From a virus (Duplodnaviria; Heunggongvirae; Uroviricota; Caudoviricetes): DNA of 5,968 nucleotides. Position 1 is the first letter of the stretch; each line of letters starts with the position of its first letter. The notes beneath the pieces were generated by a model. That model did not search any database. It had not been told where the DNA came from and saw only the letters and a program-made list of their open reading frames with translations. Below, one piece after another: positions 79 to 5,968 of the stretch. The DNA lies in the IMG/VR virus record IMGVR_UViG_2778261214_000006; one strand, given 5' to 3'. The position numbers and the translations under genes are program-made.

Positions 79-168
79 TGCACGAACCTAATTTTTAAGG
101 AGTGTCGCCAGAGTGCCGCGATGAAACGGGTATTGGCGGTATATGCAGTATATGGAGTTAAAAGATGA
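79..168 (+). pseudogene. ren: ren-like 3' remnant (C-terminal fragment only)
   Basis: In-frame translation CTNLIFKECRQSAAMKRVLAVYAVYGVKR* matches my recollection of the C-terminus of lambda Ren (...STNLVFKECRQSAAMKRVLAVYGVKR), with a 3-residue AVY duplication. The frame is closed immediately upstream by TAG 76-78 and upstream residues do not resemble Ren. The only ATG (121) would give a 15-aa peptide. Confidence 0.4.
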
Positions 169-193
169 CCATCTACATCACTGAGCTAATAAC

Positions 194-226
194 AGGCCTG
201 CTGGTAATCGCAGGCCTTTTTATTTG
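194..226 (+). terminator. Rho-independent terminator (tR2-like position between ren and the nin genes)
   Basis: Perfect 8-bp GC-rich inverted repeat AGGCCTGC (194-201) / GCAGGCCT (210-217) with an 8-nt loop, followed directly by TTTTTATTT (218-226). Seen directly in the sequence. Confidence 0.6.
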
Positions 227-464
227 GGGGAGAGTAAATCGTGGCTGAGTTTATGCTCGTCGCACTCAAATGCGTTGGCGTTTGATGGATTCTTCTGACG
301 TTATTTATTGTTCTGCATAGCTACATTCGTCTTGTGAATGACGGTAAAGACCCATGGTATACGTTGTTTGGCGCTGCATTTGTCTGGGTGATTATCGGTG
401 TTGCGCCTGTCGCTGTAGCAAAAATGGCGTGGCGTTTTGTGAGTTGAACTGAGGGTAAGTATCG

Positions 465-821
465 ATGGACGAATCAAGAAAGCAGTTTGAGGAATACGTT
501 GCCAAAAAATTGAGATTACCATTCGAGATGATAACCGAGGCAAGAAATGGTGATAGGTACTTCGCATTTTCAAGCATGGATATTCGTCACTCCTTAAATG
601 AGTGGTGGACTTTATGGCAGGCATCGCGAGCAGCTATTGAACTGGATATCGACTGGCCAGAATCGAATGACGACTTTTGGAAAGATGGTGAAGAAGGTGC
701 TTATGCGATGGGTTATGAGGATGGGCGTGACAAAACGGTAATTGCAGTAATGAAAGCTATCAGAGCCGCTGGAATTAAAGAGAAGAATTTCGATGAAGCA
801 AACAATATTCCTCCGAACTAA
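465..821 (+). CDS. Hypothetical acidic phage protein (118 aa), family not recognised
   Basis: ATG at 465 is preceded by GAGGG (451-455) at 9-nt spacing. The ORF has a 29-nt overlap with the ninB start. The protein is net acidic, rich in D/E and W, with no transmembrane segment. Confidence 0.6.
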   Translation: MDESRKQFEEYVAKKLRLPFEMITEARNGDRYFAFSSMDIRHSLNEWWTLWQASRAAIELDIDWPESNDDFWKDGEEGAYAMGYEDGRDKTVIAVMKAIRAAGIKEKNFDEANNIPPN

Positions 822-1203
822 GCAACAACAGCAAGCCGCAATCAACGCCATCCTCGCAACACCACTCGATAAAGACAAGCCAGTCACCATCCGCATTACT
901 GACTACAAGCGCAACCTTGACCAGAACGCAAAATTTCACGCGATGCTGGCGGATATCGCACGTCAGGTTCAATGGTGCGATAAGTGGTTAAAACCAGAAC
1001 AATGGAAGGTTTTGTTGATTAGCGGTCATGCAGTGGCAACAAAGCAGGAAGCTGATGTTTTGCCCGGCCTTGAAGGCGAATACGTCAACATTCGCGAAAG
1101 TAGCGCGCAGATGAGTGTGAAGCGTATGGCAAGTCTGATTGAGTACACGACAGCATGGGCTATTGGTCAGGGCGTCAGATTTACCGACAGGAGGTACGAA
1201 TGA
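793..1203 (+). CDS. ninB: NinB/Orf-family recombination protein
   Basis: 136-aa ORF with the N-terminal pattern [20 protein letters not shown] and the ...[20 protein letters not shown]... region resembling lambda NinB (Orf) as I recall it. It sits directly upstream of ninE, as in lambda. Confidence 0.8.
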
Positions 1204-1376
1204 GACGACAGCGACGAAGTATCACCGACATAATCTGTGAAAACTGCAAATACCTTCCAACGAAACGCTCCAGAAATAAACGCAAGCCAATCCCAAAAGA
1301 ATCTGACGTAAAAACCTTCAACTACACGGCTCACCTGTGGGATATCCGGTGGCTAAGACATCGTGCGAGGAAATGA
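1200..1376 (+). CDS. ninE: NinE protein
   Basis: ATG at 1200 overlaps the ninB stop (ATGA) and is preceded by AGGAGG (1189-1194) at 5-nt spacing. The product [58 protein letters not shown] is basic, 58 aa, and matches my recollection of lambda NinE. The ORF-track start at 1155 lies inside ninB and is rejected. Confidence 0.8.
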
Positions 1377-1780
1377 CAATGCTTTTAATTCAACCTGGAT
1401 TTGGACTTAGCATCAAAAAAGGCCACATGTTTGGCGAGAAAGAGTCACAACGAAAAATGGTGTCTATCCGGTTGCCATTTATCAGTATTTATTGGCTAAA
1501 CAGGGAGGCAACAAATTATTGGTATACATGCGCCAGAGCAGCATTTAACGACCCTGACTGGTTTGTGAAAAACCACCACGCAGTTCGTCAGGCAAAGAGA
1601 AAGGCCAATATGACATACATGAAGGCGTATCAAAAAGCATGGAAAGAACACCGCGATCGATACCAACAAGACATGGAAAAGCTTGAATCAGAAAACATGG
1701 AATTAAGACGAAAGCTCGGTGAAGCAAAACGAGACATTGATGCTTACAAGCGACTTTTTAATGGTGAAAGCCATGCTTAG
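1373..1780 (+). CDS. nin-region protein of unknown function (NinX-like by position between ninE and ninF)
   Basis: ATG 1373 overlaps the ninE stop (ATGA). The 135-aa product has a C-terminal predicted coiled coil (...[45 protein letters not shown]...). The start is uncertain, with internal Met alternatives; the GTG at 1337 lies inside ninE. Family assignment is by gene order only (P22 has ninX between ninE and ninF). Confidence 0.45.
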
Positions 1781-1949
1781 CCCATCCCAATCCCTTCAAT
1801 ACCAGAAAGAAAGCGTCGAGCGAGCTTTAACGTGCGCTAACTGCGGTCAGAAGCTGCATGTGCTGGAAGTTCACGTGTGTGAGTACTGCTGCGCAGAACT
1901 GATGAGCGATCCGAATAGCTCAATGTACGAGGAAGAAGACGATGAATGA
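1773..1949 (+). CDS. ninF: NinF protein (small Cys-rich, likely zinc-binding)
   Basis: ATG 1773 with GGTGA 5 nt upstream; 8-nt overlap with the preceding ORF's stop. The product [58 protein letters not shown] (58 aa) has a CxxC...CxxCC motif and an acidic tail, and matches my recollection of lambda NinF almost residue for residue. Confidence 0.7.
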   Translation: MLSPSQSLQYQKESVERALTCANCGQKLHVLEVHVCEYCCAELMSDPNSSMYEEEDDE

Positions 1950-2664
1950 GTTAATAAATGGCAATGCCATCAAAATGACAAGCATTGAAATAGCTGAGTT
2001 GGTGGGTAAGCGTCATGACAATGTGAAACGTACCATCGAAACGCTGGCTAAAAATGGTGTTATCCGGCTTCCTCAAATTGAGGTTTCCGAAAGAATCAAT
2101 AACTTAGGGTTCAATGTTCAGTACGAGCATTACGTCTTCGAGGGCGAACAAGGTAAGCGAGACAGTATTGTCGTTGTTGCCCAGTTGTCGCCAGAGTTCA
2201 CCGCTCGTCTTGTTGACCGTTGGCGAGAGCTTGAAGAAACTGCGGTTAATATCCCCAAAACGTTACCGGAAGCGTTGCGCCTTGCTGCTGATCTTGCTGA
2301 GCAGAAAATGCAACTGGAAAACCAGCTCGCAATTGCCGCACCTAAAGTTGAGTTTGCCGATCGCGTTGGCGAGGCCAGCGGAATTTTGATTGGAAACTTT
2401 GCAAAGGTTGTTGGTATTGGTCCAAACAAACTGTTTGCGTGGATGCGCGATCACAAAATCCTTATTGCTTCAGGTTCCCGGCGCAATGTGCCAATGCAGG
2501 AATATATGGATCGCGGCTATTTCACAGTGAAAGAAACAGCGGTCAACACAAATCACGGAATACAGATATCGTTCACCACAAAAATCACCGGGCGTGGTCA
2601 ACAGTGGCTGACCAGAAAGCTGCTCGATAACGGAATGCTGAAAGTAACAGGGGAGGCTGCTTAA
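1942..2664 (+). CDS. Phage antirepressor / regulatory protein, Rha-like N-terminal domain plus ANT (KilA-C) C-terminal domain
   Basis: 240-aa ORF; ATG 1942 with GAGGA at 8-nt spacing. The N-terminus (...MTSIEIAELVGKRHDNVKRTIETL...) is typical of Rha-family phage regulators. The C-terminal half (APKVEFADRV...LFAWMRDHKIL...MQEYMDRGYF) is typical of the antirepressor ANT/KilA-C domain. Confidence 0.75.
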   Translation: MNELINGNAIKMTSIEIAELVGKRHDNVKRTIETLAKNGVIRLPQIEVSERINNLGFNVQYEHYVFEGEQGKRDSIVVVAQLSPEFTARLVDRWRELEETAVNIPKTLPEALRLAADLAEQKMQLENQLAIAAPKVEFADRVGEASGILIGNFAKVVGIGPNKLFAWMRDHKILIASGSRRNVPMQEYMDRGYFTVKETAVNTNHGIQISFTTKITGRGQQWLTRKLLDNGMLKVTGEAA

Positions 2665-2954
2665 TGGCTAACCTACGCAAAGAATCTCGCGGCAGAGAAT
2701 GCCAGGTACGTATTTACGGCATATGCAATGGCAATCCTGAAACTACAGTTCTGGCACATTACCGGATGGCTGGAATTTGCGGAACGGGAATGAAGCCTGA
2801 CGACCTGATCGGCGCATGGGCTTGTAGCGCGTGTCACGATGAAATCGACCGACGCACCCATAACCTCGACAACAAAGACGCCAGACTTTACCACCTCGAA
2901 GGCGTGATCAGGACGCAGGCGATACTGCTGAAGGAGGGGAAGATTAAGTCATGA
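2664..2954 (+). CDS. ybcO: YbcO-like (DUF1364-type) putative metal-binding nuclease
   Basis: 96-aa ORF; TAATG overlap with the upstream stop and GGGAGG at 7-nt spacing. The product MANLRKESRGRECQVRIYGICNGNPETTVLAH...CSACHDEIDRR... has the conserved Cys/His pattern of DLP12 YbcO as I recall it, and lies immediately upstream of rusA as in DLP12/82-type nin regions. Confidence 0.75.
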   Translation: MANLRKESRGRECQVRIYGICNGNPETTVLAHYRMAGICGTGMKPDDLIGAWACSACHDEIDRRTHNLDNKDARLYHLEGVIRTQAILLKEGKIKS

Positions 2955-3313
2955 ACGAATATCAGTTTGTGCTTCCATACCCGCCGTCGGTGAATACCTA
3001 CTGGCGAAGACGGGGAAGCCAATACTACATCAGCGATAAAGGCCAGAAATACCGAAAAGACGTTCAGCAAATCATCCACCAACTCAAGTTAGATATTTTC
3101 ACCAAATCACGACTCCGCATCAAAGTAATCGCAGACGTTCCAGACTCCCGCCGCCGCGACCTAGATAACATCCTGAAGGGTTTACTCGACTCCCTTATCC
3201 ATGCCGGATTTGCGGAAGACGACGAGCAATTCGATGACATTCGCGTAATTCGTGGTGTGAAAGTACCAGGCGGACGGCTTGGAATAAAAATCACCGAACT
3301 GGAGAACGCATGA
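2951..3313 (+). CDS. rusA: Holliday junction resolvase RusA (crossover junction endodeoxyribonuclease)
   Basis: 120-aa ORF; ATGA overlap with the ybcO-like stop. The N-terminal LPYPPSVNTYWRRRG, the central DVPDSRRRDLDNILKGLLDSL (catalytic Asp cluster region) and the C-terminal GGRLGIKITELENA are characteristic of RusA. Confidence 0.9.
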   Translation: MNEYQFVLPYPPSVNTYWRRRGSQYYISDKGQKYRKDVQQIIHQLKLDIFTKSRLRIKVIADVPDSRRRDLDNILKGLLDSLIHAGFAEDDEQFDDIRVIRGVKVPGGRLGIKITELENA

Positions 3314-3498
3314 ACGCCACAATTCAAACGATACCAGAGCTTCTTATCCAGACACGAGGCAATCAGACCGAAGTGGCGAGGATGCTTTCCTGCGCAAGAG
3401 GAACAGTGCTCAAGTACAACCGAGACAGCAAAGGCGAGCGTCATGTAATAGTTAACGGCGTCCTGATGGTCAAACAGGGCAAGAGGGGAAGACGATGA
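3310..3498 (+). CDS. ninH: NinH-like small DNA-binding protein
   Basis: 62-aa ORF; ATGA overlap with the rusA stop and GGAG at 5-nt spacing. The core ...GNQTEVARMLSCARGTVLKY...VIVNGVLMV resembles lambda NinH (...GNQTEVARRLKCSRGTVRKY...AIVNDVLMV) as I recall it. Confidence 0.7.
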   Translation: MNATIQTIPELLIQTRGNQTEVARMLSCARGTVLKYNRDSKGERHVIVNGVLMVKQGKRGRR

Positions 3499-3584
3499 GA
3501 CTCGAAAGCGTAGCTAAATTTCATTCGCCAAAAAGCCCGATGATGAGCGACTCACTACTGGCCACAGTTTATTGGTTTTCGTAA
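3495..3584 (+). pseudogene. Q: Truncated N-terminal remnant of a lambda-type Q antiterminator gene
   Basis: ATG 3495 overlaps the ninH stop (ATGA). The first ~20 codons (MRLESVAKFHSPKSPMMSDS) match my recollection of the lambda Q N-terminus. The frame then diverges (LLATVYWFS) and stops at 3582-3584, so about 90% of the gene, including the zinc finger, is absent. Confidence 0.5.
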
Positions 3585-3626
3585 CTGAGTCATTTTATTA
3601 TTTTATTGCAACTTTTAATCTTTTAT

Positions 3627-3676
3627 AGTGCGAAATAAATGGAGCTGGCATTCATTTCGCACTTTATGTTTTTGTT
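3627..3676 (+). terminator. Inverted repeat with downstream T-rich tract; candidate terminator at the early-operon/accessory-gene junction
   Basis: 10-bp inverted repeat AGTGCGAAAT (3627-3636) / ATTTCGCACT (3654-3663) with a 17-nt loop, followed on the + strand by TTATGTTTTTGTT. The loop is long for a canonical intrinsic terminator, so this is a weaker call than the other two. Confidence 0.35.
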
Positions 3677-3709
3677 GGACTTATGTTATTTTGATTGAAT
3701 TCAATTCAG

Positions 3710-4669
3710 TTAAAAAAAGAAGGTGATTGCTCCATTTATAAATGAATAGTCATCCCCTGTCTTGAATTCTGATGTTACTTTATTAAATGCTAGTGTGAAG
3801 GCTACAGGTGCATACCCAATTGTTGCGCCAACTTGATATTCATCAACAGTTTTGTTTAGCGATACTGTTGTTTGTTTCGTCTGTATTGTTTTTCCTTCGA
3901 GAGTATAGTTGCGATTGACATCTCGTCTTTCCATACCTGCAAAAATCTTGTATTTGAATCCGCTTGTATCGGACATATGCATTAAACCACGGGGAGCCAG
4001 CAGACCAAAGCCATTATCCGAATTGAAGGTTTTATCATTACCAATGGCAATGGTTGCGCCATATGCTACATATTGAAATAAGTTTCCAGTAACAGCAGAA
4101 ACTTCAGGGTATAATCCAACATTAGCACCTAAAATATCCATACTTGGTGTCATGGATAGCATCCCTTTTACAGTATAACCGTAGCGATTCTCTATTTGAT
4201 CATCCCATGCATGATATTTTTCTGCCCCAATAATCTCATGAGCTTTATTTTGTACTTTCTGACCGCCTGCGTCGGGGCCAACAACACCTATGTCAGTACC
4301 TAATCGATAGCGAATCCAGTCATTCGCAAGGGAGTTCCATTCAATACCAGTGTGAGTGTATGCACTAAAAGCTCTGTCTCCAGTTACAGCTGTGTTGTGT
4401 CTTTTATTACTGCCTGATGGAGAGTAAATATCTTGCGCAATATGGAGAGATAATTGGCTCGAGTCTGAGATATCGTGGCTATATCCCAGAAATAAGCCTT
4501 GTGAGTAATCATCTCTGTTTTCATGTTTATTGCCATAAATATCATTAAGTATTGGTTGAAACTTCCCTGCATCATCATTTGCTAATGATAATGCAAGGCT
4601 GTTCGCGATAGCTGAACACGTGGTAAATGACAGAGCAATAAAGACGCCAGCGATGACACTTTTTTTCAT
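3710..4669 (-). CDS. lpxR: Outer-membrane beta-barrel protein, LpxR-like lipid A 3'-O-deacylase (accessory/moron gene)
   Basis: 319-aa ORF on the minus strand. The N-terminal Sec signal MKKSVIAGVFIALSFTTCSAIA ends in an AxA cleavage motif, and the C-terminus ...NGAITFFF is the aromatic terminal signature of outer-membrane beta-barrels. The predicted mature N-terminus NSLALSLANDD places Asn-Asp at positions 9-10, matching my recollection of the LpxR catalytic N-terminus. SD AGGAAG lies 10 nt upstream of the ATG. The gene and flanks are visibly more AT-rich than the nin genes. Confidence 0.7.
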   Translation of the reverse strand: MKKSVIAGVFIALSFTTCSAIANSLALSLANDDAGKFQPILNDIYGNKHENRDDYSQGLFLGYSHDISDSSQLSLHIAQDIYSPSGSNKRHNTAVTGDRAFSAYTHTGIEWNSLANDWIRYRLGTDIGVVGPDAGGQKVQNKAHEIIGAEKYHAWDDQIENRYGYTVKGMLSMTPSMDILGANVGLYPEVSAVTGNLFQYVAYGATIAIGNDKTFNSDNGFGLLAPRGLMHMSDTSGFKYKIFAGMERRDVNRNYTLEGKTIQTKQTTVSLNKTVDEYQVGATIGYAPVAFTLAFNKVTSEFKTGDDYSFINGAITFFF

Positions 4670-5144
4670 ATGTTATTGTCTTCCTTTTTTTTGAATGGTG
4701 CGCGTATTTTACATACATGAGTTTGTAATACAAGGTGCGTAATCAATATGATGTTTTATAATTGCGTGAGACAATTGATTTATTCGTTTTTTATTGCGGT
4801 TTTTATTATCTTTTAATGTAACGGTGTTTTTATTAAGTGTGTTTGTGTGGTGTTTTATGTTTTTTATAATTTTTATTTTATTAAATTTAAAAGCATTAGT
4901 AATGGCTATTCTATATAGCAATATAAGAACTGTTACAAAAAAAGGGGGGGCAATTACAGGTAGTTATGGATGATGAGTGAAACAGATATTGGAGAACCGG
5001 GGAATGAATGATGTCTGAGTCTTATATATCAGAACTCCTTCGCTGTCGCTGGGGGCTCCTGTGCTTATGTCGTTTCCCCGATTCGGTTTTGAACGATTAC
5101 CGAATGTTGAAGAATTATGCCAAAATATAGAAAGGATTTACTGC
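4670..5144. promoter_or_regulatory. AT-rich divergent intergenic region: expected lpxR promoter/5' leader and upstream region of the replacement Q
   Basis: Roughly 475 bp without a convincing ORF; 4690-4930 is extremely AT-rich with many T-runs. It must contain the promoter for the minus-strand gene that starts at 4669. No individual -35/-10 pair could be assigned confidently by eye. Confidence 0.4.
4937..4950. repeat. Abutting homopolymer tracts A7 then G7
   Basis: AAAAAAAGGGGGGG read directly at 4937-4950 in the intergenic region. A T8 tract also lies at 4685-4692, just upstream of the lpxR-like SD on the minus strand. Confidence 0.5.
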
Positions 5145-5834
5145 ATGAATACCCAATATTTACAGTATGTTCGTGAGCAACTTATGGCAGCTACTGCTGA
5201 CTTGAACGGAGCAACGAAAGGCCAGCTCGAAGCCTGGCAGGAGCATGCACAATTTGATACTGGTACATACAAACGAAAGAAGCCGCGCATTCTGGATGTG
5301 GTAACTGGCAAGATGATTACGCTGGATAATACGCCGACTTCCGGTAAGCAGTCGTACGCAAAAGGTTCATCCATTGCTTTGGTCAGCCCGGTTGAATTCT
5401 CAACCTCTTCATGGCGCCGCGCGGTTTTGTCTCTCGATGAACATCAGAAAGCATGGTTGCTTTGGTGTTACAGCGAAAGCGTTCGATGGGGGCATCAGGT
5501 CACCATAACGCAATGGGCATGGAGCGAGTTTAAAGATTTGTTAAGTAACAGAAAAATTGCAGGTAAGACACTGGATCGCCTGAAGACGTTAATCTGGCTG
5601 GCTGCACAGGATGTGAAGAGCGAACTTGCAGGGCGTGAGGCCTATGAATACCAGACACTGGCATCATTGGTGGGAGTGACAACAAAAAACTGGTCCGAGA
5701 CATTTACTGAACGCTGGGTTGCAATGAAGCACATTTTTCTACAGCTTGATAGTGATGCTTTATTGCTTGTGACGAGAACACGTTCAAAACAAAAGGCAGC
5801 ATTTTTACAGCAAAATATTGCAAAACTGGATTAA
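5145..5834 (+). CDS. Late-gene antitermination protein Q of the non-lambda (QuuQ/82-like) family
   Basis: 229-aa ORF from ATG 5145, with AAAGGA 8 nt upstream. The ORF track extends to GTG 5061, but that start lacks an SD. The product (MNTQYLQYVREQL...EFSTSSWRRAVLSL...WLLWCY...TQWAWSEF...LQQNIAKLD) resembles Qin-prophage QuuQ-type Q proteins as I recall them and lacks the Cys4 zinc finger of lambda Q. A strong promoter and terminator lie immediately downstream, as expected for Q. Confidence 0.65.
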   Translation: MNTQYLQYVREQLMAATADLNGATKGQLEAWQEHAQFDTGTYKRKKPRILDVVTGKMITLDNTPTSGKQSYAKGSSIALVSPVEFSTSSWRRAVLSLDEHQKAWLLWCYSESVRWGHQVTITQWAWSEFKDLLSNRKIAGKTLDRLKTLIWLAAQDVKSELAGREAYEYQTLASLVGVTTKNWSETFTERWVAMKHIFLQLDSDALLLVTRTRSKQKAAFLQQNIAKLD

Positions 5835-5846
5835 AAGCCATATACT
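5818..5846 (+). promoter_or_regulatory. pR'-like late promoter (sigma70)
   Basis: TTGCAA (5818-5823), a 17-nt spacer, then TATACT (5841-5846): a near-consensus -35/-10 pair overlapping the last codons of Q. The predicted start site is near 5853. Confidence 0.55.
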
Positions 5847-5857
5847 TCATGCAAATT

Positions 5858-5866
5858 TGGTATGTT
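5858..5866 (+). promoter_or_regulatory. Extended -10-like element in the initially transcribed region (candidate sigma-dependent pause / Q-engagement site)
   Basis: TGgTATGTT at 5858-5866, i.e. TGn followed by a -10-like hexamer at about +9 to +14 of the predicted pR' transcript. In lambdoid late promoters such elements hold sigma70 to create the pause at which Q loads. Confidence 0.35.
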
Positions 5867-5882
5867 GTAAAAAATGTATAAA

Positions 5883-5906
5883 CCCGCTGCCGAGTGGGTT
5901 TTTTTT
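5883..5906 (+). terminator. Rho-independent terminator (tR'-like), about 30-50 nt downstream of the predicted pR' start
   Basis: Stem CCCGCT (5883-5888) / AGTGGG (5893-5898, with one G-U pair) around a GCCG tetraloop, followed by T8 (5899-5906). Confidence 0.6.
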
Positions 5907-5968
5907 ATGCCCTGAGTTGTACTTGTACGGTAAACATGCTGGCTGCTATGTAATAGAGTTTTTTTAGC

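Follow-up and report, generated by a model that had tools for sequence, protein, structure and literature searches.

We analyzed a 5,968-nt DNA of a tailed virus (Caudoviricetes; IMG/VR record IMGVR_UViG_2778261214_000006), whose whole length is called the window hereafter and which corresponds to the nin-to-Q part of a lambdoid prophage; in this part lpxR, a gene for an outer-membrane lipid A 3'-O-deacylase, lies backwards between the nin genes and Q, the gene for the late-gene antiterminator. The explanation that we favor, and consider rather probable, is that lpxR belongs to a moron cassette at a recombination joint, that Q is supplied by N-dependent readthrough plus a weak promoter in the spacer upstream of Q, and that the arrangement is a relic in the closest relatives. 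An earlier note, made from the sequence alone, had pointed out that Q is separated from the early operon by 1.5 kb of antisense-oriented cargo, and this description was borne out: about 1.56 kb lie between the stop codon of a Q stub and the full Q, position 3585 being the base right after that stop codon, and the interval holds a hairpin with a T-tract, the minus-strand lpxR, a low-GC (guanine plus cytosine) spacer and ylcG, each at the place that had been given for it. The remark that rightward readthrough to Q must cross both a terminator-like hairpin and 960 bp of lpxR in antisense is likewise correct.

The foreign cassette spans approximately 3571-4998 (1,428 bp, 35.7% GC), and its junctions were mapped by alignment to both flanking phage types. 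On the left, HK620 and about 90 other phages, in which an intact lambda-type Q comes directly after ninH, match up to approximately 3570; on the right, the match to the rus-orf45-Q region of phage 82 begins at approximately 4999, within the last four codons of rusA and before the start of ylcG/orf45. Because the HK620-type phages (ninH followed by Q) and phage 82 (rus, orf45 and Q in this order) join the same genes without the cassette, the segment is a true insertion rather than something that arose by chance. Its GC content of 35.7% is below that of the nin region (47.1%) and that of ylcG-Q (45.6%), and both non-coding flanks of lpxR inside the cassette have 28% GC. Immediately at the left border remains the N-terminus of a lambda-type Q, a stub of 29 codons on the plus strand (3495-3584, starting MRLESVAKFHSPKSPMM), whose similarity to the intact Q in the alignment with HK620 ninH-Q and phage 434 stops at approximately 3570, that is, after the first 25 codons or so. 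In relatives the Prokaryotic Genome Annotation Pipeline (PGAP) describes this stub as an incomplete antitermination protein lacking the C-terminus, and the phage 434 record describes it as an N-terminal fragment of lambda Q. Judged from these alignments, the segment is a moron (lysogenic-conversion cassette) at the joint of a lambda-type nin module and a phage-82-type ylcG-Q-pR' module, and the same event is read as having exchanged the lambda-type Q for the Q82-type Q, leaving the stub of the old gene. Patchy presence among homologous phages, deviating GC content and own expression in the repressed prophage, three of the features by which morons are recognized, were found for this segment. 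Just inside the left border, the 8-bp sequence ATTTTATT is a tandem duplicate (3591-3606) in the window and most relatives, and a single copy in phage 434.

The whole block is also found in phage 434 (GenBank OL657226; isolation source, Paris sewer, late 1950s), which has the same Q stub, hairpin, reversed lpxR, spacer, ylcG, Q82-type Q and tR' terminator and is 99.4% identical to window positions 3485-5968; its record carries annotations for the stub, LpxR, YlcG and a "Q82-like" activator. This phage differs from the window in its left neighbor, which is ninI (serine/threonine phosphatase) instead of ninH, and in being a complete viable phage with lambda-type N, nutL, boxA/nutR, repressor and cro, whereas the window begins in a truncated ren. 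The laboratory mutant 434B (OL657227) keeps the stub, lpxR and ylcG, and a different Q comes next. Because the fully viable phage 434 carries the block, the layout is compatible with late gene activation. When the block was counted as present if at least 80% of window 3300-5300 was found, 620 of 5,426 complete Escherichia coli genomes possessed it; among the 55 IMG/VR loci encoding this LpxR, 53 had the stub, the 3' flank, lpxR, the spacer and ylcG together. The left context is either ninH (the window, O26 and prophage PP2 of enteropathogenic E. coli, EPEC) or ninI (phage 434, O157 and O55), and both contexts meet where the stub begins, which fits a single origin with later spread via flanking homology. 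In phage 82 (X92588), ylcG/orf45 and Q are homologous to those of the window and have the same start-codon context, whereas its genes overlap or abut with no spacer and the window has the 1.43-kb foreign cassette in place of the upstream rusA; because of this overlapping or abutting order, Q of phage 82 can be reached only from upstream.

Homologues of lpxR with approximately 72% identity were found on a Citrobacter chromosome, with a phosphatase-like gene on one side and a phoPQ-like two-component pair on the other (positions 5995-6960 of our locus L006), and also near tail-fibre genes and an insertion sequence (IS) in two IMG/VR contigs (for example, L060, 835-1794). Since homologues adjoin tail-fibre genes in these two contigs, lpxR has entered phages at more than one position. 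Neither the Citrobacter nor the tail-fibre-linked loci have the cassette flanks, and both were therefore rejected as the source of these flanks.

The gene lpxR occupies 4669-3710 on the minus strand (960 bp), and its product matches PF09982 (6.8e-40, residues 10-318) and, over the full length, Salmonella LpxR of PDB entry 3FID (E 3.6e-153, residues 24-319). In comparison with 3FID, N9, D10 and H122 are conserved and S stands in place of T34; these are residues to which roles in LpxR have been assigned. A 3'-O-deacylase activity of the gene of enterohaemorrhagic E. coli (EHEC) is credited to Ogawa et al. (2018), as cited in PMC6393859. Prophage PP2 of EPEC E2348/69 has only 2 mismatches in 1,701 nt and no gaps against window 3490-5190, and it retains repressor, cro-like and cII genes. 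In this prophage, the baseMean value of lpxR was 89 under the non-activating condition and 2,936 under the activating condition, with adjacent nin genes at approximately 1 (Pearl Mizrahi et al., 2021). Both Ler and Pch activate the gene, which is a member of the modulon of the enterocyte effacement locus (LEE), the activation by Ler being 21- to 35-fold in EPEC (Bingle et al., 2014) and 5-fold in EHEC. Therefore, lpxR has its own promoter, which is active in the repressed prophage and controlled by the host; the position of this promoter is predicted only, consensus matches facing lpxR being located on the minus strand at 4981-4953 and 4936-4908. [quoted passage not shown] Because PasD2, a chimera partner, is encoded approximately 2.4 kb away in the same prophage, post-transcriptional control of lpxR by a neighbor is suggested.

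On the 3' side of lpxR, a hairpin (3627-3663) is followed on the plus strand by the T-tract TTATGTTTTTGTT (3664-3676), so that the element at 3627-3676 is terminator-like for rightward transcription and at the same time gives the 3' hairpin of lpxR mRNA. The plus-strand fold has a 14-pair stem with one mismatch (-16.4 kcal/mol, z -2.9) and then UUAUGUUUUUGUU, with 10 T per 13 bases; the minus-strand fold has a perfect stem of 15 continuous pairs (-19.1 kcal/mol, z -7.1), with no U-tract on the lpxR strand. This element looks like an intrinsic terminator for rightward transcription, as far as its fold and T-tract can tell; a stricter terminator scan of the window did not list it among the terminators. 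The stems are invariant among the aligned loci and the three variable sites are all in the loop, which is not significant; since these copies are near-identical, no significant covariation was found in them. Concerning the leftward direction, a minus-strand open reading frame (ORF) of 126 codons at 3064-3444, antisense to rusA-ninH, probably corresponds to the hypothetical protein gene E2348C_0683 of EPEC. The signal of E2348C_0683, the ORF downstream of lpxR, was approximately 5% of that of lpxR in both growth conditions (Pearl Mizrahi et al., 2021), and it was activated 3- to 4-fold by Ler together with lpxR (Bingle et al., 2014). Because this ORF tracks lpxR at approximately 5%, most 3' ends of lpxR mRNA are probably at the hairpin, and because its Ler response and RNA level resemble readthrough from lpxR, the ORF is probably spurious and not a real gene. 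Among the antisense, 5' untranslated region and 3' untranslated region names in the RIL-seq feature lists, none was found for lpxR, E2348C_0683 or Q.

The evidence for a second input to Q comes from published transcriptomes. In uninduced EPEC, the genes from cro to nin had baseMean values of 0.2-7 under the non-activating condition, and the nin genes E2348C_0679-0682 had 0.4-1.8 under the activating condition, with Q of PP2 at 43 and 69, and the PP2 holin at 1.1 and 3.5, under the non-activating and activating conditions, respectively (Pearl Mizrahi et al., 2021). Prophage PP4, in which a lambda-type Q comes right after the nin genes with no cassette, serves as a comparison in the same cells; its Q had a value of 6.0, and the Q mRNA of PP2 thus amounts to 10-50 times that of its upstream genes and approximately 11 times that of the cassette-free Q. 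A plus-strand RNA fragment at 4813-4835 in the spacer was captured in RIL-seq chimeras with MgrR in uninduced EPEC (738923-738945; supplement of PMC8550237). In prophage CP-933K of O157:H7 EDL933, Q (Z0956) showed values of 4-74 in 11 of 11 conditions in strand-specific data, when Z0953 and Z0954, the two annotated genes between bet and lpxR, showed 0-3 and lpxR 0-24; in O157 copies of the CP-933K-type prophage, the stretch from bet to the nin genes is devoid of N, repressor, cro and replication genes. Furthermore, Q (E2348C_0685), described as a "predicted late gene regulator", is raised 2-fold by Ler (Bingle et al., 2014). Rightward RNA with silent upstream genes has accordingly been recorded in two strains by three studies. 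Because Q and spacer RNA are present while the upstream genes are silent, rightward transcription starts between the nin genes and 4813, and a pR-independent source of Q mRNA with its start upstream of 4813 is likely.

These data bear on a simpler explanation, which we regard as unlikely, that Q comes wholly from N-antiterminated pR transcripts and that the spacer transcripts are noise of AT-rich DNA with no role. It follows the canonical lambdoid logic, and phage 434 has N, nutL and nutR; in phage 82 the order rus, orf45 and Q leaves no place for a promoter, the promoter matches in the spacer are weak, and the holin genes stay near zero in lysogens in spite of the Q mRNA. However, it does not account for the excess of EPEC Q mRNA over both its upstream genes and the cassette-free Q of PP4, for the detection of CP-933K Q in every condition with O157 relatives devoid of the early regulatory genes, or for the response of Q to Ler.

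The lpxR-ylcG spacer (4670-5007, 338 bp) is AT-rich (28.3% GC in the cassette part, 4670-4998) and contains the lpxR control region and the candidate rightward promoters. The top-scoring plus-strand site in 3480-5200, and hence our best candidate for a pR-independent ylcG-Q promoter, is at 4723-4752 (TTGTAA, 18-nt spacer, TATGAT), upstream of the captured plus-strand RNA at 4813-4835; a second promoter-like site, also a consensus match, is at 4843-4870 (TTGTGT, 16-nt spacer, TATAAT). The earlier note had proposed, as one of two possibilities, that Q has its own promoter within 4950-5140. The first part of this proposal gains from the pR-independent Q mRNA in EPEC and EDL933; its location needs revision, because the spacer RNA puts the start further upstream, with the best site at 4723-4752, and the consensus promoter scan gave no comparable plus-strand site within 4950-5140. 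Base 4849 is T in the window and C in every related locus examined, and it is inside the MgrR pairing motif GUGUUUGCGUGGUGU reported for the EPEC plus-strand spacer RNA.

Putting these observations together, we propose the following scheme. The cassette carries lpxR, an AT-rich control region responsive to Ler and Pch, and the 3' hairpin. In the repressed prophage, lpxR is transcribed leftward from its own promoter, with most transcription probably ending at the hairpin. In phage 434 and other intact phages with this block, polymerase that starts at pR and is modified by N would pass the hairpin/T-tract and Rho and continue in antisense through lpxR into ylcG-Q, and the weak rightward promoter in the spacer, most likely that at 4723-4752, would give low Q mRNA without pR. 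Because no plus-strand reading frame of more than 64 codons crosses 3567-5007, the rightward transcript over lpxR should be an untranslated antisense RNA. In lambda, N-modified polymerase reads through both intrinsic and Rho-dependent terminators. Because both kinds are overridden in this way, polymerase should need N to get past the hairpin and the 1.4 kb that give untranslated antisense RNA.

The same features could instead be taken to mean that the hairpin/T-tract and Rho halt all rightward transcripts and that Q is made from the cassette promoter only, as a natural bypass of N. The plus-strand hairpin with its 10 T in 13 bases, the next 1.4 kb being untranslated, and the presence of Q mRNA without pR agree with such an autonomous Q, which we nevertheless judge very improbable: the N-modified polymerase of lambda overrides intrinsic and Rho-dependent terminators, phage 434 retains the full N/nut system, and the spacer-derived Q mRNA is low, with lysis genes silent in lysogens, in which a promoter strong enough to drive lysis would kill the cell.

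Several points weigh against the explanation by readthrough plus a weak spacer promoter, and they are collected here. The 4723-4752 site is a consensus match only, within AT-rich DNA in which such matches arise easily, and promoter-like sites in the whole window are fewer than in shuffled sequence (7 vs 12.1). Of the two divergent spacer variants (L057 and L058), one has this site unaltered and the other has a weakened form of it, so that it is not clearly conserved. The expression values come from other strains, one of the data sets is not length-normalised, and reads that also map to similar Q genes may be counted in the values. That induction leads to readthrough and to antisense transcription of lpxR remains inferred and is a reasonable expectation for intact phages like 434; we found in the literature no transcriptome of an induced strain carrying the block. 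The other possibility of the earlier note, that such antisense RNA and convergent transcription shut off the cargo gene, is plausible. Finally, in the window itself ren is truncated at base 80 and an in-frame TAG stop lies at 76-78, and searches of complete E. coli genomes, phage records and IMG/VR gave no match to positions 1-79. At this same end, a minus-strand ORF possibly begins near base 27 and leaves the window.

The last of these points leads to the state of the prophage. Over positions 80-5968, the window shares 99.8% identity with prophages of the O26 and O103 types that occupy the attachment site of lambda next to ybhC, and these relatives have N, cI and cro either deleted or IS-interrupted. 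In some relatives an IS3-mediated inversion splits the nin region, as in O26 RM10386, where two IS3-family copies (L003, 15007-16220 and 27010-28223) flank the inversion and the break is at about window 1575; in the O157 strain 180-PT54, Q is split by IS1203 (L005, 22149-23362), and O157 copies lack everything from bet to ninE. The closest relatives are thus decayed, defective prophages, and the layout there is mainly a relic retained for the benefit of lpxR to the host. In the genome of the window, too, the arrangement may be a relic with lpxR as the selected part. The stricter form of this view, in which the prophage is defective in this genome, Q and its inputs are irrelevant and selection acts on lpxR only, is possible and somewhat doubtful in our estimation: the losses and rearrangements in the relatives, the split Q in one strain and the cut in ren point to it, and against it stand the intact Q, pR' and tR' in the window, a Q with at most a few differing positions among most loci, and the complete regulatory regions that EPEC PP2 and phage 434 keep with the same block.

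The module on the right of the cassette starts with the last four codons of the phage-82-type rusA, followed by ylcG (5008-5130; 4999-5130 together, plus strand), an orf45 homologue identified by the phage 82 alignment and named YlcG by PGAP and the 434 record. Q (5145-5834, plus strand) encodes a phage-82-type late-gene antiterminator of 229 residues (PF06323, 1.1e-91, profile positions 1-216 of 220), of which 203 (89%) are identical to those of Q82 in a gapless alignment. It is followed on the same strand by a pR'-like promoter at 5818-5846 (a consensus-level match with TTGCAA, a 17-nt spacer and TATACT) and by the tR' terminator at 5880-5909, which is predicted from its fold as a hairpin (5880-5901) plus a T8 run and has an annotated terminator at the matching place in phage 434. 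The pR'/tR' region at 5818-5909 is likely to be the target of Q, on the basis of these sequence matches. An Rfam scan of the window gave no match at the gathering score; a weak match to STnc240 (5841-5910, 28 bits vs a gathering score of 55) overlaps the predicted short pR'-tR' transcript.

Downstream of Q, the genes between Q and the holin gene are expressed in lysogens and the holin gene is silent. The sRNA PasD2 (EcOnc13 homologue) is located after a DUF3927 gene, approximately 1.2 kb past the window end (L063, 13158-13329, equal to NC_011601, 741157-741328), and is very abundant in lysogens (baseMean 1,476 and 11,017). A 2026 preprint ties PasD to the Q and LpxR genes, and we therefore considered a PasD sRNA inside the interval between the stub and Q; this was rejected because the EPEC coordinates put PasD2 approximately 1.2 kb beyond the window. 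A more far-reaching proposal, which we think decidedly unlikely, is that the cassette brought a rightward promoter sensitive to H-NS and Ler, and that Q thus became a low-level, host-regulated product of the lysogen, which would tune tR' readthrough into the downstream cargo (membrane proteins, PasD sRNA and a NanS-type esterase) and possibly lower the lysis threshold under virulence-inducing conditions, with the readthrough on induction silencing lpxR by collision and antisense RNA.

On the left side of the cassette, the nin part of the window has on the plus strand ninB, ninE, a gene for a KilAC/Rha-type antirepressor, ybcO, rusA and ninH in this order. ninH (3310-3498; Pfam PF06322 NinH, 2e-24; the same name in the annotation of relatives) is the last intact lambda-type nin gene. 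The antirepressor gene within the nin region (1942-2664) is called "roi" in HK620 and is common to HK620-type phages, and it is not present in phage 434.

The earlier note had called the arrangement notable, which is an overstatement: the layout had been annotated before in phage 434, and other reversed morons, a bor/iss-like gene after the lysis genes of 434 and sieB opposite to kil and cIII, are in the same records. The lpxR-cassette layout is ordinary and common, and it is widespread in pathogenic E. coli. The morons bor/iss and sieB benefit the host, have their own promoters, are expressed from the repressed prophage and lie backwards in the path of antiterminated transcription. They differ from lpxR in that they do not separate the early operon from the late-switch gene, whereas the antisense stretch of lpxR is directly upstream of Q; unlike theirs, the control region of the lpxR cassette also seems to feed Q. 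A related effect is known from the nin5 and byp mutants of lambda, in which a promoter or the loss of terminators upstream of Q permits some N-independent Q. Those are laboratory mutations selected for N-independent growth, whereas the cassette promoter would have arrived with natural cargo DNA.

LpxR makes the lipid A of EHEC and EPEC less recognizable to the immune system, and the present analysis places its gene on a module shared with the textbook phage 434. If it is true that the control region of the cassette drives Q, the host virulence regulator Ler would have partial control of the late functions of the prophage and of cargo close by, and this would be a concrete case of cargo DNA rewiring a phage decision circuit.

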